Below are positions 566 to 59,097 of a stretch of DNA of 64,000 nucleotides, piece by piece. Position 1 is the stretch's first letter. The number at the start of each line of letters is the position of its first letter. Where the stretch lies: positions 55,901,862 through 55,965,861 of the forward strand of contig NC_057718.1 of NCBI RefSeq assembly GCF_004010195.1, read 5' to 3'. The stretch comes from Chiloscyllium plagiosum (lineage: Eukaryota). Under the pieces are notes generated by a model, which saw only the letters and a list, made by a program, of their open reading frames with translations, did not search any database and was not told the DNA's origin. Position numbers and translations under genes: made by a program.

Positions 566-692
566 GCTATGACAGTGATGTTGCAAAAGAGAAGTCCATC
601 GATTACACAACCAAGATCTATGCAGTTAGTATCAGGGAGATGTCAGGCACAAAGCCACATCTTCAACCAAAAGAAGTCTCAACAGAAGAAAG
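566..692 (+). CDS. EML6: EML6-like coding exon (127 nt): (G)YDSDVAKEKSIDYTTKIYAVSIREMSGTKPHLQPKEVSTEE(R)
   Basis: tttttctag acceptor and AG|gtacat donor. The peptide closely resembles the recalled vertebrate EML6 linker GYDSDVAREKAIDYTTKIYAVSIREM and is less like EML5. Phase 1 in, phase 2 out. Confidence 0.92.
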
Positions 693-1982
693 GTACATTA
701 TTGCTTTGAAAATCCACCTTATTGGCAATGTTGATTATATCGTGTAAAAGTTAATAATTGTTCTCATTTTTATTACACTTTGGTTTAGTTCTTTTGCATG
801 TTCTTAATGGAAAATTTTATCATCTATATTTTCCACAGAAAATTCACAGCACAAATTAAATAATACTTCTTAGATATTCTAATAGTTTGAACACTCTTAG
901 AATAAACATAACTGTCTTAAACCTTAACAACTTTACATTACTTGAGGTATATAAACAATGTTCTTTATTTTAGGACAGATTTCATGCATAAACAAAAACT
1001 TACTGAACATATTTAATATTTTGCATCTACAACAGTCTCAACAGTTTTTCAAACTAAATTTTAGGATCTGCAGTGGATTTTTAATTCTTATTCAACATAC
1101 AAGCCATTACATGTGGCAAAAGGAAACTAACATACCAACATGTCACTCCAACATTTAATAAATCTGAAGAACAGAATAGTTGTAGGAGAAAATATTTGTG
1201 AGGGCTATGAATGAAGAAGATTATTAAAGATAGAAGCCAAAGCATGGTAGCCTTTGGCAAGTTTGTTAAAGGAAAGGACATGAGTTGTGAGGGAAATACT
1301 TGGTGCATTTTTCAGAAAAATGGCATTACTCAATTTCCACTCTGACCACTCAAACCAATGTGGTATTTCATGAAATCCTATTATGAGAATTTGGCTATCT
1401 ATGCCAATTCACAATGCTTCCCAGAAGTTAACATTGTGCCTTACTTACAATGAAGTGCAGCAAAGCTTTAGACCATGACTGACAATGATTGATCTTGCAT
1501 GTGCCAATCCAATCCTGTTTGGTACTTAAGTATTCTTTGATCAGTTGTCACAACTCTGCACTGCTTTCCTGCAGACCAAGACATTATGAAGGCAAATCCC
1601 CAATTCAACAACTGTAAAATTTCTTGATAGCATCCATTTACATGCCTTAGAATTATATTTATAAGATGTAATATGTTTAATTTTTTTTTAAAAAAAAGCA
1701 TTGCAAATATTTGTATGATTCTTGGGGTTTATTTTGGAAAATTTATGCTGGAATCCAGTTAGTAGTTATTGCTATTCAGTGATTTTGACTGACAGTTGTT
1801 CTTATGTACACAACGGATAAGAGGTGTTGTGGTGCAATGTATAGTCTCCTTTCTTCTGACTGAGTTCTGAGTTTCAGTCCACTCCAAGACTTAATGGTCA
1901 TGGAAAGTGCATTCGTAACATAGCCGAAAAACTTCACTCTCAATGTGTGGACCCTTCCACAATACCAGTGGCAGGTAGTTAT

Positions 1983-3141
1983 GCAAAGTTTGTGAAGGTT
2001 TGTAGCTCAGGTTGAGGTTTAGGGTGTAGGTTTGCTCGCTGAGCTGTAGGTTTGATATCCAGACATTTCATTACCTGGCTAGGTAACATCAGTGGCGACC
2101 TCCAAGTGAAGCGAAGGATCTTAGTAGACTGGCTGTCATTTCTGAAACTTCTTTGGTGTATGGTAAGGTGGTTAGGGTTTCTGGCTGTGTTTGATCTGCT
2201 TATTGTGGTTTGTTCTTGAGGAATCTGCGCACTGTATTTTTTGAGTATCCATTCTTCTTGAATACGTTGTATAGGTGGTTCTCCTCTGTTTTCCAAAGTT
2301 CATCTGTGCTGCAGTTTGTGGTGGCTCGTTGGAATAGTGTTCTCATACAGCTTTGTTTGTGTGTGTTGGGATGGTTGCTGGTGTAGTTAAGTATTTGGTC
2401 AGTGTTTGTCAGTTTTCTGTAGTTCTTCATTGTCCTTTCTTTCGACTGTGATGTCCAGGAATGCGAGTCTCAAGAACAAACCACGACAAGCAGACCAAAC
2501 ACAGCCAGAAACCCTAATCACCTTACCATACATCAAAAAAGTTTCAGAAATGACAGCCAGACTACTAAGACCCCTCGGAATCCTAGTAGCACACAAACCC
2601 ACCAACACTCTCAGACAAAGACTAACAAACTTAAAAGACCCAGTACAACCCATGGACAAAACCAACGGCTTCTCCAAAATTCCATGCAAGGACTGCCACA
2701 AACACTATATAGGACAAACAGGAAGAAAGTTAGCCACCAGGATACACGAACACCAGCTAGCCACAAAAATACATGATCCTCTCTCCCTCGTAGCCCTACA
2801 CACAGATGAAAAAAAACACCATTTCGACTGGGGTAACACATCTATCCTGGGACTGGCTAAGCAAAGACATGCCAGAGAATTCCTAGAGGCCTGGCACTCC
2901 AACCACAATGCCATAAACAAACATATAGATCTAGATACCATCTATTAACCCCTTAGAAAACGAACAGGAAATGACATCACCACAAACCCCAGGAACCCCA
3001 TCCAGGACAAACATATAAATAGAAAGCAGGAGACAACAGCTTCGCTTCACTTGGAGGTCGCCACTGATGATGTTACCTAGCCAGGTAATGAAATGTCTGG
3101 ATATCAAACCTACAGCTCAGCGAGCAAACCTACACCCTAAA
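1983..3141 (+). mobile_element. Penelope-like element (Poseidon type), 5'-truncated, with inverted 5' segment and GIY-YIG endonuclease
   Basis: ORF 2406..2948 has IPCKDC-HYIGQTGRKLATRIHEH. About 2010-2116 is the reverse complement of about 3038-3140. 12-bp TSD GCAGGTAGTTAT at 1971-1982 and 3142-3153. Confidence 0.9.
3061..3100 (+). ncRNA. Minimal type I hammerhead ribozyme motif in a PLE terminal repeat (slightly decayed)
   Basis: CCA-CTGATGA-t-GTTACC-tagcca-GGTAAT-GAAA-tGTC-TGG, with helix I CCA/TGG. Confidence 0.7.
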
Positions 3142-3329
3142 GCAGGTAGTTATAACAGAAGAATCTCCTGGTCATTCCTGCTTAATGTGGGGTGGTGATT
3201 CTCAAGTTATATCTCCTAGAAGCAGGTTCATAATTTGTTTCAGGAAAAAGAACAGATACAAGAACCAACATAAGCACAAGCTTTGTCTCCCACGTAGACC
3301 GCAAGGTGTGGAAAGGGAACAGAAGAACA

Positions 3330-4362
3330 CATCTGCTCAATCCAGGCCTCTCAATATTTTGTGTTTCAATTAGATCTCTCCTTTTCCTTCTAAACTCCAA
3401 GTACTGAACCACCCTGAAACCGCTTCTCATATGACAAGCTTTTCATCCCTGGAATTATTCTCATAAACCTCTCTGTACCCCCTCCAACAACAGTACATCC
3501 TTCCTTAGATATAGATCCCAAAACTGCATGTAATACTCCACGTGCGGTCTGACCAGAGCCTTATACATCCTCAGCAGTATCCTTCTGTTCAATATTACAT
3601 TTGCCCTCCTAACTGTGAACTGAACCTGCATGTCAATCTTAAGAGAATCCTGAACTCGGCATCCCAAGTCCCTTTGTGCTTCAGATTTCTGTAGCCTTTC
3701 CCATTTAGAGAATGAGAGAAAGTGAGGACTGCAGATGCTAGAGAGTCAGAGTCAAAAAGCGTGGTGCTGGAAAATCACAGCAGGTCAGGCAGCATCCGAG
3801 GAGCAGGAGAGTTGACATTTTAGGCATAAACCCTTCATTAGGAATGCTTCATCATGCCTGACCTGCTGTGCTTTTCCAGCACCACATGTTTTGGCCCATT
3901 TAGAAAATAGTCTATGCCTCTGTTCTTCCTACCAAAGTGTATAACCTCACATTTTCCCACATTGTATTCCATCTGCCACTTCCTTGTCCACTCTCCAAGC
4001 CTGTCCAAGTCCTCTGCAGCATACCTGCTACCTCAGCACTTCCTGCCCTCCACCTATCTTTATGTCATCTGCAAACCTAGCAACAATTCCCTCAGTTCCT
4101 TCAGCCAGTCATTAAAGTATAACATGAATAGTTACATAGCCTTGTGGAACTCCACTAGTTACCAGCTGCCATCCAAAAAAATACCTGTTTATCCTCTGCC
4201 TTCAGTCAGTCAGTCAATCCTTTAACCATGCCAGTACCTTGCCCCTAATCTATGAGTTCTTATCTTGTTTAGCAGCCTCCTGTGTAGAACCTTGTCAAAG
4301 GCCTTCTGGAAATACAAATAGATCGCATCCACTAACTTTTCTTTGTCTAATTTGCTTGTTCC
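3330..4362 (-). mobile_element. CR1 LINE 3' RT fragment, interrupted by a PLE-derived short element
   Basis: ORF 3461..3667 has LRMYKALVRPHVEY...LEGVQR, typical of the CR1 ORF2 C-terminus. Confidence 0.85.
3714..3894 (-). mobile_element. Short Neptune-type PLE terminal-repeat insertion (family A, decayed hammerhead)
   Basis: aaagtgaggactgcagatgct...cagcaggtcaggcagcatccgaggagcagg. TSD CCCATTTAGA(G/A)AAT at 3700-3713 and 3895-3908. Confidence 0.75.
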
Positions 4363-5524
4363 AAGGACAAGCAGAGAAAATTTTGAACAATGCATATTGT
4401 GTAAAGAGAGCTTACGGAAGTATCGTATATTTTGATATTTGGTATAGAATTAAGAGCTTTACTCATGATTAATACAATATCTGGAAATTCTGAAATTAAA
4501 GTGTTCTTCAATGAAATAGATTTAAGTAGTCTTGAAATAAATTTGTAGTTGGTAATTAGGAAGTAATAATTCTTTGTTTCACTTTGCTGCTTAAATGAAT
4601 TGACAGTTTTTTTAGTGAAAAATCTTTAAGGTCAGTTACTAAACAACTCTTTTGCTGTGATGTGATTAAAGATATACTGATTTGAATTTTTTTCCATTGT
4701 TGCATTTGCAACATTTGAATTCTATTCAAAGAACATCCTTCAAATCAAATCTATCTATTCTATTGCTCTAAACGTTTTGTTTGATGTTTTGAATAGTATA
4801 GTAGTATGCGAAAACACTGTAGTTGTTAACTCCGTTACTGAATGCTTTGAATACGAAGTGTCGGTAAAATTAATAGATTTCTATGTTCAAGTATCTCTAG
4901 GCTGCTGCTTCTGCTGTAAATAAATCAGCATTTAAATTAGTCTGCTGACCATGTTTTGACAAATATTATTTCAACTAGTAAACTGCCTGACTACAACTCT
5001 CTGATATCTGTAATATAAAAATGCTGCACAGTAATAAAAAGTGATGGATTTATATCGAAGTAGATGATCAACATGAATTTGTTTCTCCTCATGATTAAGT
5101 CTAAACCATACTTGATTTCAAATAACAAAAATCCACCATTTCATTTCACACAAATCAAGAATTTCAAGTGTTAAGCTACATCAGCGTAACACATTCAAGA
5201 TAGTATCAATGTCATCAGACTGTCTTGTAACGTGGCAAAGCACACTGATTAAAATGTTGGTGTCCGACTCCTTGCTACAGATTTAATTATTACCAGCATT
5301 AGCTAACAGTAGACTTAAGCTATCTTGCCTACTGAATAAGATTATACAAATTTGAATAAAGTAAATAAAATGACACAAATGTCTTCCTCACCTGTTTAGC
5401 AAATTTTCTACCTGAAAACAGATCTCTTAATAGATTCAGTCATTGTGCAATTACTTTAAAAATTTGAACATTTGCTAAGAAACACTTAATATTGTATTAT
5501 GTTTTAACTTGCTTTCCTTTGGAG

Positions 5525-5539
5525 GCAGGGAATTGTCAA
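5525..5539 (+). CDS. EML6: Candidate 15-nt alternative microexon GCAGGGAATTGTCAA, (R)QGIV(K)
   Basis: ttgctttcctttggag|...|gtaagt. It preserves frame in the phase-2 intron and resembles the recalled EML5 insert RQGVVRGSR. Confidence 0.75.
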
Positions 5540-25149: not shown

Positions 25150-27620
25150 TTAAGAAAGAGGCCGAAATGCAGGATCTCAAGAGTAATAATTTCTGGATTA
25201 CTACCAGTGTTACATGCCAGTGAGGCAAGGTATGGAAATATAGGACAAATAAATGCATGGCTAAGGAACCCTGCATAGGACAGGGTTTCAGGTTCTTTGA
25301 TCTTTGGGATCTCTTCTCGGGTAGGAGCGATCTATACAAGAGGAACATCTAAACAGGAGGGGAACCAATATCCTCTGCAAGGAGATTTGCAATGCTACAC
25401 AAGAGGGTTTAAACTGAAATGATAGGGGTTGGGAACAAGAGCAGCAGGTCAGCAAATAGAGGGAGTGAGGGAAAGGTAGATGTTAGGACCAGTAAGTCTG
25501 AAAGGAAAGCCAAGCAGAGACAGGAAAATGAACACAGTGGGCTAAAGTGTTTTTCTTTCAATGTAAGGGGTATTATGGGTGAGGCAAATGAGCTTAGTCC
25601 CATGCACTGATTCAGGCTCTATGATGTGATGGCCATTACAGACACTTGGTTGAGAAGGGGACAGGACTGGCGAGTCAACAGTACAGGTTGTTGTTGTTTT
25701 AGATGAGGTAGAGAGGGAGGTGAAAGAGGTGGGGAAGTTGCATAACTAAATCAGGGAGAATGTCACATCTGCACTCAGAGGATATAGTGGAGGGGTCATC
25801 CACTGAGGCAGTAGAGCTCAAAAATAAGGAGTGTGCAATCTCTCTGCAGGGATACTGTAGGCCCCCAACGGTCACCAAGACATTGAGGAACAAATATGTA
25901 AGCAGATTATGGAAAGATGCAATAACAACAGGGTTGTCATTGTGGGTGACTAACTTCCCCCGTATTGACCGGAACTTCCTTAGAGCAAGAGGCTTAGATA
26001 GATCAGAACTTATCCGGTGCATCAGAGGGTTTCTTGAAACAGTATGTGCATGGTCCATATAGAGGAGACTTACTGGACCTTGTATTGGCTCATAAGCCTG
26101 GCAAGGTGACTGTTCTTTTTTTTAAAATCATTTTCATTTTTTTTAAAACCCCCATGCTACTGCCTAACTGCGGTAGTGCTTATTTTTTCCCCAGCACCCA
26201 TGTTGTGTGCGCGCGCGCGCAGGTGTGAGACACAGTGAAAGACACAAGGTGTACAAATCTTTATTCAAATTTCCATCACCAGGAAGAAAAGGAACACCCA
26301 AGTAGCCAGTGACAAGCAGTGCCCTTCACATCAAAGTGTGACTGACCTTTCAGTGGGAGAGCATTTTGGAAACAGTGATTACAACTCATTAGGTTTTAAG
26401 ATAGCTATGAATAAAAAGTCAGAACTTTGCAGGAAGGTACTAAATTGGTGGGAGTGAAGGCAAATTAGTATTAGGCAGGAGCTAGGGAGATGTAATTGGG
26501 AGCAGCTGTTATTGTGCAAGGCCACATTTGACATGTGGGAGCTGTTTAAAGACCTACTGATCAGAGTTCAGGATGAGCATGTTCCACTAAGGAGGGAGGA
26601 CAAGGATGGCAGGGTAAGGGATCCTTGATTAACAAGGGAAGTTGTGAATTTAGTCAAAAAAGGGAAAAAAGCATACGTAGGGTTTAGGAAGCTAAAATTG
26701 GATAAAGCCCATGATGAATATAAAAGAATCTTGCAAAGATTTGTAGTGCAGGTTGTGGATGTGATGCCACAGAAGTCACATTTATATGGCCTAGCATGGT
26801 GAAGAAATATTTGCACGACAACCCACCAGCTTGGCAAGCTAACCTACAGTCACAAATATAACAAAAGCAGGAAAGAGCTCAAGCAGGGAATTAGGAGAGC
26901 AAGGAGGGGCCATGAAATGATCTTGGCAAGTGGTGTTAAAAGAGAATCCCAAGACATTCTATATATACACATTAAAAACAAAAGGATAACTAGGGAGAGG
27001 GTAGGACCATTCAAGGATAAAGGAGGGAGACAAAAGATGTGGGCAAGATCCTAGATGAATACTTTGCATTGGTATTCACCCAGGAGAAGGATGTGGAGGA
27101 TAGTAATATTAGTGTGGAATATGCTAGGGCATTTTGAGATCAAGAAAGAAGTGGCGTTGGGTCTCTTGGAGAGCATTAAGGTGGATAAAGTTCCCAGGGC
27201 CTGATGGTATCTAGCCCAGGTTATTGAGAGAGGCAAGAGACAAGATTGCTGAGGCCTTCACGAAGATCTTTGTATCCTCAATACCATGAGAGGTCCTGGA
27301 GGACTGGCAAGTAGCTAATGTTGTTCTCCTGAAGGAGTGAAATAGGGATAATCCAGGGAACTATAGACCAGTGAGTCTCACATCAGTATCTGGGAAGCTA
27401 TTGGAGAGAATGCTTAGGGATAGAATTTACGCAAAATTTGGAAAAGCATGGTGTAATTAGGAACAGTCAGCATGGCTTTGTGCAGGGCAGGTCATGCCTT
27501 ACCAGCTTGATTCAATTTTTTGAGGTCACAAAAGGTGATTGATGAAGATAGAGCTGGAGGTCCATGTCTAGTCGTGTTCCACATGGATTCGTACTGGGAC
27601 TTCTGCTGTTTGTAATATAT
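25150..27620 (+). mobile_element. CR1 remnant (ORF1 end, endonuclease, RT N-part)
   Basis: FNVRGI, LLDLVL, NYRPVSLTS and SQHGFV motifs in broken frames. Confidence 0.8.
26113..26337 (-). mobile_element. Tx1/L1-like 3' UTR fragment with A-rich tail
   Basis: Homologous to 59845-60030. AATAAA on the - strand; GTGACTG duplicated at 26106-26112 and 26338-26344. Confidence 0.75.
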
Positions 27621-36082: not shown

Positions 36083-37269
36083 AAGTTTGTGAGAAGATTT
36101 GTAGCTTGGGTGCACGTTGCTGTGGTTCTGTTCGCCGAGCTGGAAGTTTTTGTTGCAAACTTTTCGTCCCCTGTATGGTGACATCCTCAGTGCTTGGGAG
36201 CCTCCTGTGAAGCGCTTCTGTGGTTTTTCCTCCGGCATTTATAGTGGCCTGTCCCTGCCGCTTCTGGTTGTCAGTTTCAGCCATCCGCTGTAGTGGCCGG
36301 TATATTGGGTCCAGGTCTATGTGTTTGTTGATGGAGTTTGTGGATGAGTGCCAAGCTTCTAGGAATTCCCTGGCTGTTCTTTGTTTCGCTTGCCCTATAA
36401 TGGTAGTGTTGTCCCAATCAAATTCATGTCTGCATGTGTCTGCGTGTGTGGCTACTAGGGATAGCTGGTCGTGTCATTTCGTGGCGAGTTGATGTTCGTG
36501 GATGCGGATCGTTAGCTGTCTTCCTGTTTGTCCTATATACACCAGAACTGCAAAAAGAGGAAGAGGAACACCTATACAAGGTATTCGCAAAAAACGATAT
36601 CCTCGCAATTTCATCAACAGATGCCTAAGAGAAAGACAACGGAACGAGGACATGCCGCAACCCAAAGGACTAGCCACACTACCATACATCAGGAGCATTT
36701 CAGAACTGACAGCCAGACTACTGCGACCACTAAGACTTATAACATCACACAAACCAACAGCCACTCTCAGACAACAACTCACCAGAACGAAGGACCCGAT
36801 ACCCACATTAGCATAACTAATGTAGTGTACAAAATCCCATGCAAGGACTGCACAAAACACGATATAGGAAGACAGCTAACTATCCGCATCCACGAACATC
36901 AACTAGCCACGAAACAACACGGCCAGCTATCCCTAGTAGCCACACACGCAGACGAGAAGCAACATGAATTTGACTGGGACAACACTACCATTATAGGGCA
37001 AGCGAAACAAAGAACAGCCAGGGAATTCCTAGAAGCTTGGCACTCATCCACAAACTCCATCAACAAACACATAGACCTGGACCCAATATACCGGTCACTA
37101 CAGCGGACGGCTGAAACTGATAACCGGAAGCGGCAGGGACAGGCCACTATAAATCCCGGAGGAAACACCACTGAAGCGCTTCACAGGAGGCTCCCAAGCA
37201 CTGAGGATGTCACCTAGGCAGGGGACGAAACATTTGCAACAAAAACTTCCAGCTCGGCGAACAGAACCA
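36083..37269 (+). mobile_element. Penelope-like element (Poseidon type) with inverted 5' copy of its 3' region
   Basis: GIY-YIG NVVYKIPCKDC...IRIHEH. About 36110-36535 is the inverse of about 36860-37268. 13-bp TSD TTGCAACAGTTAA at 36070-36082 and 37270-37282. Confidence 0.92.
37198..37238 (+). ncRNA. Decayed hammerhead motif in a PLE terminal repeat
   Basis: GCA-CTGAGGA-t-GTCACC-taggca-GGGGAC-GAAA-catt-TGC. Confidence 0.6.
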
Positions 37270-40600: not shown

Positions 40601-43600
40601 TGTAGTAACAGGTTCGTGCCCAAGTCTATTGCAACAGAATTGGTTGAGGAAAGTTAATCTTTATTGGTTTAACATTTTTCAATTGGAAAATGGCTGCCTA
40701 ATTAAATATACAGAAGTTTTTCAGGAAGGGCTAGAGACTAACAAAGGGCCAAGGCTAGTTTACATGTTGACCAAAAGGAAATTTTGCAAGGCCTGCCCAG
40801 TGCCATTTTCCTTATGGACAAAAATAGAGGCAGAAAACAAGAGGCTGGAAAGCAAAGGAATCATCAAACCAGAGCAAATTACGGAATGGGCAGCACTGAT
40901 CATATTGATTGTGAAACCTGATGTTTCGGTTCGCCTGTGTGGGGATTTTGAGTAAACAATAGGCCACTTCTTGCAGCTGGATAAATATCCAATCCCTCTT
41001 GTAGAGGACTTGTATGCAAAAAACTGATGAAGGGGCTGTCCTTCACAAAGCTGGGCATAAGCCATGCATCCCCACAAGAGCTACTAAATAAGGAGTTCCA
41101 GAAGTATAACACAATTATGCCCATAAAGAGTTTATACAAGTATACAAGGCTGCCAATTAGGATATCAGCCTGCACCCTTTGAGTGGATGATTGAGAACAT
41201 TTTGCAAGATTTACCCCAGGTTGCCATTTTTCTGGATGACATGCTAATAATCAGACGAACCAATAAAGAGCACTTTGAGAACTTGGATTTGGTGCTTAAA
41301 ATGTTTCTCCCAGGTGGGCATACACATGAGAAGGTAAAAATGTGTGTTCCAGGTATTCCAGATAACCTACTTTGGTTACAGAGCCGACAAAAGCAGGTTA
41401 GACCTGTTGGAAGATAGAGCAATCAAAAGTGCTCTGGCTCCCAGGTCTGTATTGGAGTTTAGTTTTTCCTGGGTTGGTGAATTATTAAGGGAAATTCCGA
41501 TGTAACATGACATTCATTATAGCACTCCTATATCTGCTATTCATGAAGAGTCAGCCTTAGAAATGGTTATGTAGACAAGTAACTTTTAGTTATCTGAGGT
41601 GTTGTCTCACTATGATCCTAAGCGACATGCAATGCCTCCCCACATGGTATGGAGCCCGGTGTGCTTCCCAGACTTTGGTCTGTGCCAAATGCAAATATGC
41701 CCAGGTAGAGAAAGACAACTTGGGAGTCATCTTTGGTATGAGAAAGTTCCAGCAATACTTTTGTACATGTACATTTGTCATATTAACAAACCACAAGTAC
41801 CTGCTGGAACTATGTAAAGATGTCAAGGCTATACCGACCATAGCTTCTAGTTGAATTCAGTGGTGGACCATTATTCTCAGTGCATACAACAAGTTGGAAC
41901 ACTGTCCAGGAGCCATGTGGTAAATGTGGATGCCTTGAGCTGCCTCCCACCAGAAGAGTCAGTTATGGTTTTTAACTTCCTGGACATCCTTCCGGTCACT
42001 ACTGACAGCATGGACACAAAAACATCCCATCCTGTTAAAATTAAAACAGCTGGTGGTTGCAAGGGAAACAGATGCCCCATCAGAACCAGGACCAAAAACA
42101 CAGGATGGCATATTATGGGGAGCAAAAATGATTGTCACCGCCAGATACTGGCTGAACTCCACCAGGGTTATCAAAGGGTTTCCAAAATGAAATTGTTGGC
42201 AAGGAATTATGTCTGGTGGCCAGAATTGGATAGCGACATAGCTGTATTGGCGTGGCAGTGCCCAGAGTGCCAACAAGGACAAAGCTTACTGCCAGCAGCA
42301 TGCCCACATTCGTGAGAATGGCCAGTTAAACCCTGTACTTGGTTATGCATCTACTGTGCCAGTCCTTTCATTGGCTCAATGTTCCTGGTCATTGTGGATT
42401 ACTAAAGTGATTGGACATGCATAGAGTTCATTTGGCAAACTCAGGTGTGACGCTTGAAAAGCTGTGAGGATTGTTTGCAATGCATGGACTCCCAGAAGTA
42501 TTGGTCATAGGCAACGGAATGTCATTTACCAGCAGGCAATTCGAGTATTTCCTAAAGTCAAACAGCATTCACAATGTTTGGAAAGCTCTATACCAACCAT
42601 CCTCCAATGCTCTGGTGGAAAGAGCAGTCCAAATGTTGAAAGCTGGTTTAAAGAAGAAACAGCCTTGTCCTGGTTCCTGTTTGATTGAGGACTCCCCTCA
42701 CACAACTACAAGGATAGCTCCAGCAGAGTTGCTGATGGGGAGAAGATTCCGCACCAGGTTAAATCTAATATTCTTGGGCCTAGTGGAGGGGTAAAGGGTG
42801 AAATAACAGCAGGAATGCAGGTGCTGCCTGCATGCCTCCTCTAGGCAAGAGAGACATTTGACTTCAGGGGATGAGGTTTGGTGCCAGAATCGCAAAGAAA
42901 CCTCAGTATGAGATGAATGCAGACTCAATAGTAGGTCTAACATACGATGAACGGCTGAGGATCTTGGGATTGTATTCATTAGAGTTTACAAGTTTGAGGG
43001 GAGATCTAATAGAAGCTTACAAGATAATGCACAACTTAGAAAAGGGTGGTCACTGGGAAGTTGTTTCCATTAGGCAGGGGGACTAGGACCCGTGGGCACC
43101 ACCTTAGAATTAGAGGGGGTCAACTTAGAATGGAAATGAGGAGACATTCCTTCAGCCGGAGAGTGGTGAACCTGTGGAATTCATTGCCACAGAGTGCAGT
43201 GGAGACTGGGACATTAAATGTCTTCAAGAATTTAATCAAGCTCTGCCTTGATCTCGCAAGAAATTAAGGGCTGGGGAGAGTGCAGGTAAGTAGAGTTGAA
43301 ATGCCCATCAGCCATGATTAAATAGCGGAATGGATTCAATGGGCAAATGGCCTTACTTCCACTCCTATGTCTTAAGGTCTTAATACTGTTATCATTGGGG
43401 AAAACAAAAAGGAGAAAACTCTCCCAAGGCACTCTGGGCACAAAGGACAGGCTACGAACCAGTACCCCACCACCTATGTTTGCGTCTGAGTTAGAGGAAC
43501 TGGACCTGGAGCAAAAATGTCCCAGGAGAAGTTACAACAGAAAGAACAGGCCTACATTCTCTGAGTTAGATTCAGAAGGTCTTCTCAGTCTAGGGACTGG

Positions 43601-47178: not shown

Positions 47179-47308
47179 GAAATTGCCTTAGAACATGTGT
47201 TTGGATACAGAGGCTTTGACTGCCGCAACAACCTTCATTATCTCAATGATGGGACTGATATTGTTTTTCACACAGCTGCTGCTGGCATTGTTCAGAACCT
47301 GTCATCAG
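47179..47308 (+). CDS. EML6: EML6-like coding exon (130 nt), HELP motif: EIALEHVFGYRGFDCRNNLHYLNDGTDIVFHTAAAGIVQNLSS(G)
   Basis: tttttctttcag acceptor and CAG|gtaata donor. VFGYRGxDCRNNL is the EMAP HELP signature; lies inside ORF 46966..47319. Confidence 0.95.
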
Positions 47309-47957: not shown

Positions 47958-48134
<177 letters not shown>

Positions 48135-49007
48135 TAGTATTTGTATAGTTAAAAATCACAACACCAGGTTATAGCCCAAAAGGTTTAATTGGAAGCACTA
48201 GCATAGTATTTATATGTTAGCTTAAAATTAAACCACAAATCAATTATAGTATAACAATCCAAACATTAACATTAGGGCATTTGATATTATATATATTTGT
48301 AAGTTATTGACAAATCTAGATAAAAGAACAAGATATACAGTGGAGGATAACACCAAGATTTACAAAAGTAGGGAAGAATAAAAGAAAAAAAAAATCAAGT
48401 CGTCCAGAACTTGAGTCTGTGCCTGTTCACTCACTGTAGCTTCACTAGAAATACAACAACAGGTCTACTTGCAGGATCTCCACCAGATTTGTGGTGAGAT
48501 ACAACAGTTGCCAGGAAATTCAGGGCTATGGTGGTTAAGGATTCCAAACTTGGCTTTTAAAAGTGTTGTTTGAAGAAAAGCAAATACTTCTGTTATTGCT
48601 CAAAATGTCACACTTCAGGTATAAGTGTAAAGGAATCATTCTCTCACCAGGATACAAAATACAGAACGTGTATAGCTATTTAACTATCTTTTGCACAAAA
48701 CAAACCACTAGTTATTCAACAATAATTAGACTCTGTAGCCTTAAGGGGTAAATCTAAAGCAAGAAATATTAATGATTTGCCTTGTATATTGCTTATAAAG
48801 CAATATACATGGTTGTGTTACTGTGAGCAACACCAAATAAAATTTACTTCTAACAAAATGAAAATAGAGAATTTTTCTTCCATCATATTTCAAACAGTGG
48901 TCGTTTGTATTGGCAGATTTCAGTGTTACTTTTCCATATAATTATTAAAAATGGCACATTCCTAACATTGCAACAGATCAGTGTTCAATGAGCAATACTT
49001 ATATGAA

Positions 49008-49335
49008 GGGCAGCACGGTGGCACAGTGGTTAGCACTGCTGCCTCACAGCGCCTGAGACCCGGGTTCAATTCCCGCCTCAGGCGACTGACCGTGTGGAGT
49101 TTGCACATTCTCCCCATGTCTGCGTGGGTTTCCTCCGGGTGCTCCGGTTTCCTCCCACAGTCCAAAGATGTGCAGGTCAGGTGAATTGACCATGTTAAAT
49201 TGTCCGTAGTGTTAGGTAATGGGTAAATGTAGGGGTATGGGTGGCTTGCGCTTTGGCGGGTCGGTGTGGACTTGTTGGGCCGAAGGGCCTGTTTCCACAC
49301 TGTAATGTAATCTAATCTAATGTAATCTAAATCTA
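49008..49335 (+). mobile_element. HE1-type tRNA SINE (well preserved)
   Basis: A box ggtggcacagtgg, B box gggttcaattccc, and a (taatc)n tail. Confidence 0.92.
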
Positions 49336-49599
49336 AAGATGAACAAAATAATTCAGTCAAAACTAATCAAAATGCTTTCATCAGTATGAAATAAGAAGCT
49401 TCTGCTGAGTGGTGCAGAAATCTATCAATAAAAGAAAGGTACGGATTGAACTAATGTTTTTTAAAAATGCTGAAACAGTAAAATTCTGCCCTGGGTAAGG
49501 TAGAAAATGGGCAATAGCCAATCAGCCACCATTACCCACCTACCTGATTTTCTTTTCTCTTCATTTGAAAGTAAAGTTACAATGGATATATATATAACA

Positions 49600-50398
49600 C
49601 TGAGCAGATCAGGCAGCATCCAAGGAGCAGGAAAATCAACATTTCAGGCTGGAGCCCTTCATCAGGCATGAGGCTAGGAGCCTCTGGGGTGGAGAGATAA
49701 TTGGGAGGGGGTGGGGCTGGGGAGAAGGTAGCTGAGAGTGCGATAGGTGGATGGAGGTGGGTGTAAAGGTGACAGGTCAGAGAGGAGGGTTAAATGGATA
49801 GGTTGAGAAGGAAGATTGGCAGGTAGGACAGGTCATGAAGATGGTGCTGAGCTGGCAGGTTGGAACTGGGGTAAGGGGGAGGGGAAATGAGGAAACTGGT
49901 GAAGTCCACATTGATGCACTGGGGTTGTAGTGTTCTGAGGCAGAAGATGAGGCATTCTTCCTCCAGGCGTCAGGCAGTGAGGGAGTGGCGGTGGAGGGCG
50001 CCCAGGACCTACATGTCCTCGGCAGAGTGGGAGGGGGAGTTGAAATATTTGGCCACGGGGTGGTGGGGTTGATTGGTGTGGGTGTCCCAGAGATGTTCCT
50101 TAAAGCGCTCTGCGAGAAGGTGTCCAATCTCCCCAATGTAAAGGAGATTGCATCGGGAGCAACGGATACAATAAATAACATTTGTGGAAGTGCAGCTGAA
50201 ACTTTGATGGAATATGGAAGGCTCCTTTAGGGCCTTCGATGGAGGTGAGGGGCGCAGATTTCGCAATTCCTGCAGTTGCAGGGAAAGGTGCCAGGAGGGG
50301 AGGGTGGGTTGTTGGTGCTCCTTGGATGCTGCCTGATCTGCTGTGCTGTTCCAGCACCACTTTAATCTTGACTCTGATTGCAGTCCTCACTTTCGCCT
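49600..50398 (-). mobile_element. Neptune-type PLE 3' fragment
   Basis: ORF 50009..50266 has CTSTNVIYCIRCSRCNLLYIGE...AERFKEH; inverted terminal piece at about 50315-50398. Confidence 0.85.
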
Positions 50399-50932
50399 AT
50401 ATATATAATGCTGAATCATTTTGCTACTCTTCCCCAATAAATGGTGAGTTTTATCCCCAACATCTTTTCAATTATATTGGACCAAATCTTATAGGGGTCT
50501 GAGCAATGTTGACTTTATGGCAAGATTTGTGGCAAAAAATAGATGAGAAGTCCAGCAAGGCTTAATCTCTACATTGAAGTATCTTGTTCCATTTTTTTAA
50601 TGCTCTTGTCAAGCTGCAAGGCAAATTTCTTGCTAGGCAGTGAAGAGTTGCCAATTAAGAATTATTATTGCTTGTTAATTGCCTTGTTAACTTCCCAACT
50701 CACCTGATTTATACTCAGCTTTCTATCTTGCCAAATGCACCAAACAAGTTGGATGTGCCCTGAGATGCTGTTTTGTGCTGAGCAACATATAAGCTATTTG
50801 CAGCCAATGGTGAGCTGGAGTCACCAGGTTTCTGCACTGACTTCCATATTGAGAATTCTTGGCATCTTGTTTGTTTAATAAATTTAGTGAGATTGGAAGG
50901 TATATATGTCAATGAGGCAAAAAATGCAATTA

Positions 50933-51370
50933 CTGTACATACTCGAGTAATAGTCAAATTTTTTGGACTACTTTTTAAGGTTAAATTTATAAAGTCGACT
51001 ATTACATGGATACTACTTTTGAGGGGCTGAAATTCATGCCCATCAAAATTCATACTATATCATTAGCAGAAACTCAACTGATCTCTAAATGAAGAAAGAG
51101 GAAAAAAAAATTGTTAATTCTGAAAACCTGGAGCGGAGCACAACAACCAGCGGACTGCAAGACTGGGAGCAAAGCAGAACAACTGGCAGAATGGAAACTG
51201 GATTGGAACATGATTGCCAGCACATAGACTTAATAAATATTGATCTGTTATCTGTGAAGAACTAGAGTCAACTTTTACAAGAGATAACCTGGAATTTTCC
51301 ATCTATTTGGTAAAAAGTAGAGGATTGACCTTTACATGACATTGACTGACTGTTACTTATGTATATATGG
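50933..51370. mobile_element. Non-autonomous Tc1/pogo-like MITE
   Basis: TA|CTGTACATACTCGAGTAATAGTC ... GACTGTTACTTATGTATATATGG|TA imperfect TIRs with TA flanks. Confidence 0.6.
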
Positions 51371-51599
51371 TAATAAGGTGCTTAACAAGCAGTAATCCAC
51401 CCTAATAGGCAACTTCACCGCTGCCTCACAAGAAACTCACCTCAATGCTCAGTGGTTGCATGAAAGGTGGAGCGAGAGCCCACATCAGCCAGGCCCCTAT
51501 ACGATTCTGCACATGGAACATTCCTCAATTAAAACTTTGTTTCTATCTCCACAATGAAAGGGATAATACTGTTATAGACTTCAGGGGAAGAGCATGAAA

Positions 51600-52455
51600 T
51601 AGTGGAAGAAATTAACAGAGAGAGAGGAGGGACTAGTGGGTTTAGTGGTGTTAAAAGGAATAAATTGGCTGGATTGGATGATATGTATCTCAAGGGAGTG
51701 TTGGGGCAGTGATTTGTAATCTTCTTTGACCATAGGTGGGATGCAGAAGGACAGCCCACATTGTCTGATTAGTTAAAAAGGTGGAAAGGTTATACTAGGA
51801 AATTACAGGCTAGTCAGTCTAATCTCAGTGTGGAGAACTTATTAGAAAGTATTCTGAGGGACACAATAGAAGGACGCTTGGAGAGACATGAATTATTTAG
51901 GAATAGTTGGCATATGTATTTAAGGGAATGTCAAATTTGGCAAATTTGAGGTGGTAACTGGAAGTGTTGATGAGGGAAAATGCATTTGATATGCTCCAAA
52001 TGGACTTTAGCAAGGCGTTTGATAAGGTCCAACATGGCAGATTGTTCAAGAATATAAGATCGCATAGAAGCGTAGTTACCACCCTATCTATTTTCATGTC
52101 ATCCATGAACTTCTTGAACATACCTCTTACATGTAAATCCAAATTATTAATGCACATCATAAATAGCAGCCATTCAGAACTCCACAGGAGACAGAGTTTC
52201 AACAGAGAAACATCTGTCTACCACCACCCTCTGCTTCCTACCACTCAGCCAAATTTGGATCAAGTGTGCCACCTTGCCTTGGATCTCATGGGGTCCTATT
52301 TTCTTGACCAGTTAGCCATGAGAGACCTTGTCGGAAGCCTTGCTAAAGCCCATGCAAACCACATCAAATGCATTATTCTCATCAACAGGCTAAGTAAGCT
52401 CCTCAAAATATTCAATCAAATTTTTCAAACACAACCTTTTCTTAACAAATCCACT
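51600..52455. mobile_element. CR1 RT fragments in opposite orientations
   Basis: MDFSKAFDKVQHGRL on the + strand, then reverse-strand RT pieces. Confidence 0.65.
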
Positions 52456-52759
52456 GTGAAGTACTTTGGCAGGATATTGTTCCAAGGTAGCAAAGTGTGA
52501 CAGCCAATTTTCACACAAGACGCCATAAACATAAAATTGTTGAATTCCTTGTGTTAATTAGCAAGCAGCACAGATTAGTAACACGGATTTAGTTTCCTTG
52601 AAAATCTCATGCGAATTTAACAGCTCAATCTACAACTCACATTTAAATACAATCACATATGCAATCTGCTTCTAGCTTGTTTCTGCTTGACTGTGCATGA
52701 TATTTGGTAATGTGGATACATATGTTATTTGGTTGATTTACATACCAATTCTTAAAGCC

Positions 52760-53460
52760 ATGATATGGAGGAGCTGGTGTTAGACTGGGGTGGGCAAAGT
52801 TAAAAATCACAGAACACCAGGCTATAGTCCAACAGGAAACACTAACTTTCAGAGCACTGCTCCTTCATCAGGTAGCTGTGGAGCAGGACCATAAGACACA
52901 GAATTTATAGCAAAAGATTACAGTGTTGTGCAACTGAAATGATATATTGAACAAACCTAGAATGCTGTTAAGCCTTTGATCTTTTAGAATGGATTGCAGG
53001 TTTCGGTTCATTAATATGTAAATCCCAGAACTACTTTTAAGTCACATTCTCAAGATAACTTAAGGTTTTATAAAAGAAGGCGACATCTCAGCTCAGACAA
53101 TGCGTTAAAGGTATGAGGTTAGAGTCTGTCTGTATCTCAACCTTGAGTCAGACTGGTTCTATTTCCAAAGTGGAATTTATAAAATATCACATGGATTGAC
53201 TGCCTGCAGATGGTGCACGTTTTGAGCAAAATAGAATGTATTTGCAAATACAAATTCACCCAATAGACTTTTGTGTGTGTGTGCGCGCATGAGAGCAAGA
53301 GAGTTTGTGAGTGTGTGCATGAGAGAGTGTGTTTGCATGTGCACATGCTTGGTAAGGTATGTGTGTGTGTGATGGATATAAGCCTGTGAGAGGGTGTGTG
53401 CAAGGGTGTGAGTGTGGGGTGTGTATGTGTGTGTCTGTTGTGTATGAGAGAGTGTGTCTT
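52760..53460 (-). mobile_element. PLE-derived element, family B, with (TG)n/(GA)n tract
   Basis: Homologous to 29200-29492; decayed hammerhead at about 52840-52872. Confidence 0.75.
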
Positions 53461-53542
53461 AAAGTAACATAGCTCTTAAAATAATAATACAATCCCATTC
53501 TTCCATGAACAAATTACATACACCCTATATAAGTGTTATGGT

Positions 53543-53745
53543 AAAAACTGAAAGAACTGCAGATGCTGGTAAATCAGAAACAAAAACAGAAATTTCAGGA
53601 AAACCTCAGCAGGTCTAGCAGCATCTATGAAAAGAAATCAGAGATAATGTTTCAGTTCTGAGGAACGGTCACTGGACCCAAAACATTAACTCTAATTTCT
53701 CTTCACAGTTGCTGCCAGATCTGCTGAGCTTTTCCAGCAACTTAC
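53543..53745. mobile_element. Fold-back PLE-derived element (family D) with central decayed hammerhead
   Basis: Inverted arms ctcagcaggtctagcagc.../...gctgccagatctgctgag; CTGAGGA-acGGTC-actg-GACC-caaaacatt at about 53658-53688. Confidence 0.65.
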
Positions 53746-54324
53746 ACTTTATGGTAGTTGTGAAATTACTTACAAAAAAGATTGAAAAGATTACGAGTTT
53801 GACTCCAAGAGTCTATATAATGCATATTTGTTTTGACAATATTTCTGGGTCTTGTGATGGTGTAACCTTCCAGAGATTTAGACTTTGCACTTGGCTTTTC
53901 TTGATTTGTAGGTATGTTGGAATCTTATTTGCTGTTAGTGTGTTAACTGTTATCCTAATGGTTTTCCATACCTTAATATTCAAAGCTATTTTTGTGTGTG
54001 TTTTGTGCATAATTCTAGTACTGCACAGTTCCTTGTGTTAGCTTCTGTCTTTCCTTTATGTTGGTCAGTGTTAGGACTTGTTGAGAGTCTAGACAGATAG
54101 CAGCCTGGCAATATTATCCTGTCTTGGTCTCTGTTGGTGAAGGTAAGCCTATGTCCAGAGATATAGGCACTTTGAAGCCAAGTGTGTAATAAGTGATCAA
54201 GTCATAATTCTGTAGTGTTACAGGAATTTGTTGTAGTCTAGATATTGCACTTATAGTGATTTGTACAAAATCATTTCCAATTCTCTGTAGTTTCCCTAGT
54301 GAATTGCTTTCCAAATAGGTATGT

Positions 54325-54578
54325 TTGGAACTTGTGATACACACCACCAACTTCCAGAACATTTCAGAAAATATCTCTGGGATACATGCACCAAACAACC
54401 CCACCACCTTGTGGCCGACCACTTCAACTCCCCCTCCCACTCTGCCAATGACATGCAAGTCCTGGGCCTCCTCCACCACCAAATCCTAGCCACTCGATGC
54501 CTAGAGGAAGAACATCTCATCTTCTGCCTTGGGACCCTCCAACCACACTGCATCAATGTTGATTTCTTCAGTTTCCTC
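54325..54578 (+). mobile_element. Neptune-type PLE GIY-YIG C-terminal fragment
   Basis: VADHFNSPSHS...EEEHLIFCLGTLQP. Confidence 0.75.
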
Positions 54579-55535
54579 ATGTGGACAAAATTTCCTCTTT
54601 TCATTATACAATACAGCACCAACTTCAAATGTTTTCTATGGCATTGAATCTGTCTGGGTTAGTCCTACAACAATTATACTCAATGTGAGGATCCTTGGTC
54701 TCTTCTGCTGCAGTTGGTATTTAGTGATGTCATGCATGGTCAAAGTATTTGGATCCAAGCTGGTCAGTTAAATCTTATAGCTGTTCTAATGGTGAATTCT
54801 GAAGTTTATTTTTACACAAGGCTGATTTTCCACCATTTCTCATAGTTCAGCAAGATTTATATGGTCTTTTTGAAACAGGCCAGAAATGTTTCCAATGATT
54901 TCTTTCTTTTCTCTCCTTGCTTACCTTGTTTTTTTCCATCTAAAAACCACAGCTCCATTGTTTGTTGAAAGAGCCTACACGTGAATAGGATGGGTATGGC
55001 CTTTGTTAGTCATCTTTCTAATGTTTCTTGCTTTCAACAATGGGAATTTATTGTGCTCTTGCTACTATAAGGTTACTATCTCACTACAAAGATTCAGCAG
55101 TGGTGTTGTTCTGTTTCTTTTATGTTTGTTTCATTCTGTCCTGTGTTTTTTTTACATGAAGCTTGGACTTTGTTTAATTTTGTTTTACAAATCTCTTACT
55201 CACATTTGGGTAGCTTTTTAAATCTGGAATCCCAGCATAGGTGTAACTTCTTCACTGTTGCAACATTTCTCTGAAGTCATCTCTTGTGATATTCAAACTT
55301 GTCACTGCTTTGTTTTTAAGAAAAATCCCCAGTTCTGATCACCATCTCTTATTTCCTGTGTTATCGGTAAGAATACAGATTAAGAAGCTTGGGTATTCAG
55401 TTTATTTTAAAATCGCATGAAGACTTATTTAAAACCTTGAGCTATAACTTTCTGTACAGATAACTATATATTTAACCTACATCTGATGAACTGCATATAG
55501 CAGTTGTTCATATTCTTACATTCTGGTACTTGACT

Positions 55536-55765
55536 TGATTTGGAGATGCCTGTGTTGGGTGTACAAAGTTACAAATCACACAACACCAGGTTATAGTCCG
55601 ACAGGTTTAATCGGAAGCACTAGCTTTCGGAGCACCGCTCCTTCATCAGGTGGTTGTGGAGTGCACAATTGTAAGACACAGAATTTATAGCAAAAGTTTA
55701 CAGTGTGATGTAACTGAAATTATACATCGAAAAATACCTTGATTGTTTGTTAAGTCTCTCATCTA
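55536..55765 (-). mobile_element. PLE-derived short element, family B
   Basis: gatttggagatgcc...caacaccaggttatagtcc, same family as 28811-29492. Confidence 0.8.
55615..55655 (-). ncRNA. Intact minimal type I hammerhead ribozyme motif (family B)
   Basis: Minus strand: aacCAC-CTGATGA-a-GGAGC-ggt-GCTCC-GAAA-GCTA-GTGctt. Confidence 0.82.
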
Positions 55766-56212
55766 ATAGAATTATAACAGATGAACAAAAGGAGGCACAA
55801 ATGATGTTGTAATTTATTTTTTATGGCTCTTCAAATATGTAGTTGGTATTCTCATTGTGTTAGTGCTTAGTTCCTATTATGTAGTAAGACTAAAACTATT
55901 TCTTCACTGTACTTTATAATGTAAACCTCGTTTGAAATATGGGTCAATTATTTAAATTGCAATCTTAATTTAACAAGCTAGTTTGAATAATAAAGTTTCA
56001 TACATGGTAATAATACCCGTGTCACACTTCTAATTTGCCTTCAAATCAGAATTTTGCTTTTCTTAAAAGCACATCTTACCTTGCATCCATTTTACTTGTT
56101 TATTTTGTTATTGGTATTTTTCCTCGGATTCTGTTGTATAATGCCTCAAGATCAGAGGTATAATTTATCTAGGATCAATATTTCCTCATTTGCACTTGCT
56201 GTCTCAATGCAG

Positions 56213-56233
56213 GTGATATTGCAGATACATCAG
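56213..56233 (+). CDS. EML6: Candidate 21-nt alternative microexon GTGATATTGCAGATACATCAG, (G)DIADTS(G)
   Basis: tttgcacttgctgtctcaatgcag acceptor and consensus CAG|gtaagt donor. Phase 1/1 and frame preserving; resembles recalled EML5 GDSADMSA at the same position. Confidence 0.8.
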
Positions 56234-56577
56234 GTAAGTTTATCAGTTCTTTCCCTTTTCCAATGCCCACTGTTCCTCCTCCTTTCCATCATTCTCTTTA
56301 TATGTATTTGTGCAGTTTCATTGGTTCTCTCATGCCTGTGAAACTGTCACAATGTATTTGCTCATAAAGCCAATACATGTGGTTGTGCAACCTATGATTT
56401 TGTTCTGAGTTCATTGCAGTGCTTAATAGTTAGTATTAGAATAATAAGCCTTTATTCTACGTTACATGCCTGAACTAAATTAGTTGACTGTGAATGGATT
56501 TTGTTTCTGAGAAGATTCAAATAATTAATCAAAATGTTTATGCAAGCTACTGAAAGAAAACCACCTTCAAGTTTTAA

Positions 56578-56838
<261 letters not shown>

Positions 56839-58571: not shown

Positions 58572-59097
<526 letters not shown>

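Follow-up and report, generated by a model that had tools for sequence, protein, structure and literature searches.

The EML6 gene in the window

The window, by which we mean the whole 64,000-nt stretch of Chiloscyllium plagiosum DNA that was analysed, contains nine exons that could be placed in the gene EML6, comprising three microexons and six ordinary exons. They are listed below with their coordinates in the window, strand, description and the basis of each assignment.

566..692, + strand: EML6 exon of 127 nt in the linker between TAPE2 and TAPE3; match to EML6 isoforms
5525..5539, + strand: second EML6 microexon, 15 nt, with GAG acceptor and an upstream TGC; RefSeq isoform X1, the exon chain being an exact substring of P0010
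8043..8051, + strand: third EML6 microexon, 9 nt, with AAG acceptor and two upstream TGC; RefSeq isoforms X1 and X2, the exon chains being exact substrings of P0010 and P0129
10330..10408, + strand: EML6 exon of 79 nt, basic linker 5' of TAPE3; match to EML6 isoforms
47179..47308, + strand: EML6 exon of 130 nt, HELP motif of the third TAPE domain; match to EML6 isoforms
47968..48066, + strand: EML6 exon of 99 nt upstream of the 21-nt microexon, terminating in blade strand b; match to EML6 isoforms
56213..56233, + strand: EML6 cassette microexon of 21 nt, phase 1/1, encoding DIADTSG in the third TAPE domain; sequence, shark isoform peptide and a 283/287 chain match
56645..56818, + strand: EML6 exon of 174 nt downstream of the 21-nt microexon, starting shortly 5' of strand c; 100% identical to C. 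plagiosum EML6 (P0010, XP_043551898.1)
58877..59085, + strand: EML6 exon of 209 nt, the final one found in the window; match to EML6 isoforms

Exon chains that omit the 21-nt exon are exact substrings of the C. plagiosum EML6 RefSeq isoforms X1, X2 and X3, and C. punctatum EML6 differs from the window chain at 2 of 272 residues. In a quick tree of 34 rows, the window gene falls in the EML6 clade (SH-aLRT 99), separate from EML5 (100), and one branch with a support of 100 holds all vertebrate rows. Triple-TAPE EMLs have been defined as having three modules, each of HELP plus tandem propellers, and no coiled coil (PMC4761370); an included-form relative, P0122, carries HELP and three stretches each of PF23409 and PF23414. 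The 21-nt microexon lies in the third of the three TAPE modules.

Several other features of the locus were recorded. The acceptors of the 15-nt and 9-nt microexons (GAG and AAG) are unusual, and both exons have counterpart inserts in EML5 and in primates. For the region 693-5524, catshark and skate models contain an extra 8-residue insert 5' of the 15-nt microexon, and Hemiscyllium has a different one (P0133, P0134, P0159, P0160, P0122); no matching exon was located in the window. The 36.8-kb intron at 10409-47178 contains many retroelement-like reading-frame fragments, among them ones that we take to be integrase-like at 41851-42791 and reverse-transcriptase-like at 26239-27540, with presumably similar ones at 2391-2945 and 36516-37214.

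Splice signals of the 21-nt microexon

Two further features flank the microexon, and both were read directly from the sequence.

56185..56212, + strand: acceptor region, with a branch-point-like CTCAT at 56185-56189, TGC at 56191, 56197 and 56208, and AG at 56211-56212
56234..56239, + strand: donor GTAAGT of the microexon

The original prediction described a 21-nt segment between cAG and GTAAGT, in phase 1/1, together with the peptide formed on joining it to its neighbors, and the window sequence agrees throughout. The trinucleotide cAG at 56210-56212 directly precedes the exon. Because the last base of the upstream exon, at 48066, is the first of a codon and the downstream exon opens at 56645, both flanking introns are in phase 1, so that inclusion gives ATGQIG-DIADTSG-TTPSIH and keeps the reading frame. 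Its length in the 3-27 nt range, its AG and GT sites and the preserved frame are those of a cassette microexon.

The three TGC motifs that had been predicted in the acceptor region are all present, at -22, -16 and -5 relative to the acceptor. The last of them overlaps the acceptor itself, leaving just two that are free-standing. The branch-like CTCAT is at -28, and AG is absent from -41 to -3. The TGC at -22 and -16 thus lie 3' of a branch point that is a motif guess, in the arrangement reported for SRRM3/4-dependent microexons, and may act as an SRRM3/4 enhancer.

How often such an arrangement arises by chance was gauged by scanning the window for YAG, an exon of 3n nucleotides (3-27 nt), GTAAGT, TGC and a pyrimidine-rich stretch. 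The pattern matched once, vs. 0.18 matches per shuffled window, and at least one match occurred in 35 of 200 shuffles. At least three TGC were found in 63 of the 8059 25-nt windows of the host intron. Splice anatomy by itself is therefore weak evidence, within reach of chance, and the shuffles lend some color to the idea that the segment is a splice-like accident inside an 8.6-kb intron. That idea is refuted by homology, as annotated isoforms from two further shark species have 7 of 7 residues in common with it at precisely this junction, and we give it almost no weight.

The 21-mer occurs a single time in the window. The intron 5' of it contains, at 48157-55734, dispersed repeat copies with 74-91% similarity to one another, as well as two inverted pairs, one of 236 nt and the other of 87 nt.

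Inclusion and skipping in protein models

DIADTSG is present at the identical junction in EML6 RefSeq models from Hemiscyllium ocellatum (XP_060686923.1 and XP_060686925.1; 2/2 among those listed) and Scyliorhinus canicula (XP_038665843.1, XP_038665860.1 and XP_038665868.1; 3/3 of those listed that reach the site). The window's exon chain including the microexon translates as an open frame, and 283 of its 287 residues, insert included, are identical to H. ocellatum EML6 isoform X5 (P0127). It is this homology at the exact junction, not the splice pattern, that makes the microexon real. RefSeq models are usually based on RNA alignments.

In contrast to the two related sharks, in which the insert is annotated, the listed isoforms of C. 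plagiosum itself lack it: the microexon is skipped in three isoforms (among 15 of 36 cluster members listed), and likewise in the C. punctatum protein. Among short transcript-derived proteins with the insert (21 matches, 70 candidates), none was a shark inclusion form. These skipped models would suit an exon that is vestigial in this shark, its sequence kept and its inclusion lost. Against this, the peptide is the same as in the Hemiscyllium and Scyliorhinus models, both splice sites are intact, and microexons are in general easy to miss where neural RNA is sparse; we consider a vestigial exon very improbable. Inclusion in C. plagiosum, as judged from the conserved junction and splice sites, is highly probable.

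Alternative use of the segment is visible in other species. The presence or absence of just these 7 residues is what separates paired isoforms of chimaera, stingray and horn shark EML5, and a tilapia pair (P0191/P0193) differs by the 7 residues plus skipping of the next exon, which indicates that the 7 residues come from an exon of their own. Nine non-teleost species entries have protein models of both forms, these being gene models and not reads: three among 16 cartilaginous fishes, three among 6 amphibians, one among 5 non-teleost bony fishes and two among 30 EML5 species. Some gene models have obvious fillers at the microexon site, several of which resemble intron read-through. Taken together, the segment is a real, in-frame EML6 microexon, of the ordinary conserved vertebrate kind and not a shark relic.

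Distribution and age of the insert

The occurrence of the insert was tallied by species entry at the level of protein models, with exon boundaries outside the window inferred from proteins; teleosts were not counted by species. A missing insert in this tally means that the listed models of a species skip the exon, and nothing more. For EML6, the acidic 7-residue insert was found in 8/16 cartilaginous fishes, 3/5 non-teleost bony fishes, 6/6 amphibians, 6/17 reptiles and birds, and 3/16 mammal entries. Holders include rays, chimaera, paddlefish, sturgeon, bowfin, a snake, lizards and a turtle, as well as many teleosts, zebrafish among them (P0044). A matching acidic insert occurs in EML5 from 25 of 30 species and in both hagfish species, and in none of the 16 invertebrates sampled, which were echinoderms, a hemichordate, a tunicate, molluscs and a brachiopod; the sample covered neither amphioxus nor lamprey.

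The EML5 counterpart had been given in the original prediction as ATGQVG-DSADMSA-TAPSIH and proposed to be homologous; human EML5 isoform XP_016876553.1 (P0265) indeed carries DSADMSA. Homology is borne out by the two EML5 forms, ...GQV-A-TAP when skipped and ...GQV-GDSADMS-A-TAP when included, which is what a 21-nt phase-1 exon is expected to produce. The vertebrate EML5 segment thus shares with that of EML6 the TAPE3 position, length, phase-1 signature, D/E at positions 1 and 4, and the presence of both forms among models. The two differ in their middle residues and in usage, as inclusion is common in EML5 models (25/30 species), whereas for EML6, amphibians apart, the share of species with inclusion is about half or lower.

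Since the insert is found in EML6, EML5 and hagfish, and in none of the 16 invertebrates, it is probably older than the EML5/EML6 duplication. The counterpart turns of TAPE1 and TAPE2 are short in 227/227 and 226/226 full-length proteins, respectively, and one gain in TAPE3 on the vertebrate stem, ahead of the EML5/EML6 split, would be the simplest history. Hagfish sequences form a long branch that groups with EML5 in the 34-row tree, and invertebrate gene models could miss a microexon. On these comparisons, an origin in the vertebrate ancestor is very likely.

Mammals deserve separate mention. Three mammalian EML6 models contain the insert, from gray whale (P0206, which continues past the donor), wild camel (P0232, EPY88709.1) and gray squirrel (P0237, MBZ3880418.1). 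All three are GenBank models based on genomes, so they indicate that the sequence persists and do not imply splicing. Of the 16 mammal entries, 11 show the skipped form alone; the insert is likewise missing from every mammalian EML6 RefSeq isoform examined, a set without human EML6, whose canonical form the original prediction took to lack it. With three genome models keeping the exon and the RefSeq isoforms examined not doing so, the pattern suggests that the exon of mammalian EML6 has been overlooked or is fading, and some mammals may have lost the microexon or seldom use it.

The segment had been interpreted as an ancestral microexon retained in shark EML6. Ancestry is supported; a retention special to sharks is not, as the insert occurs in EML6 from rays through birds and in three mammal models. 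The stronger version, an exon kept in shark EML6 and lost from the EML6 of other vertebrates, can draw on the mammalian entries that list only skipped forms and on the RefSeq isoforms, but is contradicted by amphibians, reptiles and birds, non-teleost bony fishes, many teleosts and the mammalian exceptions at the frequencies given above, and we regard it as highly implausible.

Seven-residue differences at other sites were also encountered. Those between isoforms of Acanthaster and of Myxine were considered as the same exon and rejected, as they lie elsewhere: in hagfish (P0293, P0298) another 7-residue piece differs near the C-terminus of TAPE3, and in Acanthaster (P0314, P0317) the difference is at a third site. 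Seven teleost EML6 models (P0024, P0031, P0084, P0101, P0114, P0188, P0195) have a 12-residue insert, the 7 plus 5 more, which would point to another very short exon, or to use of an alternative donor, in one of the teleost paralogs.

Position of the insert in the third TAPE domain

In a predicted model of the skipped-form TAPE3 (mean pLDDT 88; TM 0.90 to the EML1 crystal structure 4CI8), strands 76-81 and 87-92 border the insertion point on its two sides. By our own count of strands, the site appears to be the b-c turn of the second four-stranded blade. Such b-c turns are on the narrow top face of WD40 propellers. The included-form model, in which the same strands flank the loop and the insert (83-91) falls below pLDDT 50, has a mean pLDDT of only 60, probably because its alignment was narrower and had no invertebrate rows. 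We considered whether the insert destabilizes the domain and rejected this, given that alignment and a low confidence that extends far from the insert. The predicted placement of the insert between two strands, both with and without it, upholds the earlier assignment to a WD40 blade loop.

The turn tolerates insertions, as judged from a control set of 148 distant TAPE representatives with 109 measured sites, of which 79 have a short loop and 22 have at least 10 residues. At the matching turn, EML1 has a constitutive loop that is one residue longer than the included form and aligns with one gap. The EML1 TAPE (4CI8) has the same fold, but its loop is fixed and contains lysines, whereas the microexon is optional and acidic. 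Because unrelated TAPE proteins are also long here, the similar loop length is not evidence of common origin with EML1. The notion that inclusion restores an EML1-like loop by homology was accordingly rejected, as unrelated long loops recur at this turn and the charges differ.

Constraint on the peptide itself was assessed across 321 proteins, of which 282 have the site: 146 have a short loop, 113 are longer by 7 residues, and 23 are of other lengths. Among the 113 longer loops, D/E occupies position 1 in 105 loops and position 4 likewise in 105, and the net charge is -2 in 103, counts that are not independent because isoforms are included. Several of the 10 without a charge of -2 look like intron read-through. 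The acidic pattern spans hagfish, EML5 and EML6; positions 2, 3, 5 and 6 vary widely.

These data bear on whether the exon is spliced with little effect on the protein, merely lengthening a permissive loop, its conservation being mostly that of splicing signals. The unrelated long loops at 22 of 109 distant sites, the longer EML1 loop, the low-confidence prediction for the insert and its variable positions are all compatible with this, as is the minimal impact of microexon removal described in a zebrafish study (PMC12626420). Against it stand the D/E at positions 1 and 4 and the charge of -2, which are kept from hagfish to mammals in both paralogs, and the mid-exon place of position 4, distant from the splice sites. 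A spliced exon of little consequence for the protein is therefore judged improbable.

Putative neural regulation

Each of the three EML6 microexons has a TGC within -20 to -4 of its acceptor, in contrast to none of the six ordinary exons of the gene in the window. UGC between the branch point and AG has been reported for 74-79% of SRRM3/4-dependent microexons, without being a strict requirement for the SRRM4 response, and that response is reported to be conserved from shark to mammals (bioRxiv 10.1101/2024.09.17.613571). The EML6 exon has in common with these neural (eMIC) microexons a length of 3-27 nt, a preserved frame, UGC between the putative branch point and AG, a consensus donor and deep conservation, the last seen across vertebrates at the level of protein models; its membership in the class is putative, and eml genes are missing from the zebrafish neural-exon table. 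As for expression, mature neurons have a 20.9-fold higher level of human EML5 than progenitors (PMC7935315), and EML5 has been described as high in testis and brain (PMC9037033). With the UGC motifs as its basis, control by neural SRRM3/4 is rather likely, and in neurons these factors would switch the microexon on.

Published supplementary data were searched for the exon. Twelve supplementary files of PMC12626424, including the zebrafish neural-exon table, contained no names starting with “eml”, and the control itsn1 was found. This could reflect gene naming or the read-coverage filter stated in that paper. Likewise, eml5 and eml6 were absent from the files searched for PMC12626420 (12 of 13), PMC13281805 (2) and PMC7821500 (8 files, searched with no control, in which tables may use ids). 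In the supplement of PMC7935315 (12 of 19 files), an EML5 expression row was present and an exon row was not found.

A somewhat unlikely alternative is that the exon, though ancient and real, is not a neural SRRM3/4 target and is instead included broadly or in another tissue (testis, sensory cells) under other regulators. The zebrafish table, with its working control, speaks for this, as do the usual inclusion in EML5 models, the presence of the insert in all 7 hagfish proteins that have the site, a pattern compatible with broad inclusion and with neural use alike, the high EML5 expression in testis as well as brain (PMC9037033), and the absence of TGCATG within about 300-400 nt on either side of the microexon. 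It has to be set against the acceptor-near TGC that distinguish the microexons from the ordinary exons, the length, frame and strong donor that suit the SRRM3/4 class, and the possibility that naming or the coverage filter removed EML genes from the table.

Possible effect on tubulin binding

With the microexon included, the third tubulin-binding TAPE domain would gain seven residues, acidic overall, at a surface turn. In TAPE3, four basic positions are each kept in 39 of 40 alignment rows. They are presumably equivalent to the basic patch of EML2-S, and one position that is presumably equivalent to a clamp position of EML2-S is Thr in 40/40 TAPE3 rows. TAPE domains have been reported to bind soluble tubulin (PMC4761370), and in the TAPE of EML2-S four basic residues and a hydrophobic group in the first propeller bind the tyrosinated alpha-tubulin tail (PMC12182296, PMC10471123). 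A preference for tyrosinated microtubules is described for EML1-3, and syntaphilin provides a precedent for splicing that alters how a microtubule protein reads tubulin modifications (PMC13672295).

Two acidic residues, if placed on the propeller face that carries the conserved basic residues, could make binding to the acidic tubulin tail weaker or tune it differently. By analogy with EML2-S, such an effect of the insert is possible, and we offer it tentatively. For the reading as a whole, in which a 21-nt cassette microexon shared with EML5 and hagfish would be switched by neural SRRM3/4 and add an acidic TAPE3 extension that tunes tubulin binding, we estimate a probability of roughly 0.55. 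A more far-reaching version, in which a microexon from the vertebrate ancestor, kept in both EML5 and EML6, is hidden and mostly unannotated in mammalian, and perhaps human, EML6 and in neurons lays an acidic flap over the basic face with which the third TAPE domain reads the tubulin tail, so that splicing would change the reading of the tubulin code by EML5 and EML6, is doubtful.

Novelty and meaning

The microexon is already contained in database models of related sharks, and its counterpart in a model of human EML5. No published description of it was found in the literature searched, with VastDB and subscription papers outside the search, and it is quite possible that VastDB or unsearched supplements have an entry for it. 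If not new, it is at most a lightly annotated example of a well-known exon class.

As it stands, the finding matters little: it corrects a shark EML6 gene model and lengthens by one the list of conserved vertebrate microexons, here in a gene of the cytoskeleton. As an exon common to two paralogs and hagfish, it dates the microexon to early vertebrates, with usage that differs after duplication. If it is true that the acidic insert alters tubulin binding, the exon would be a testable splicing switch for the poorly studied EML5 and EML6.
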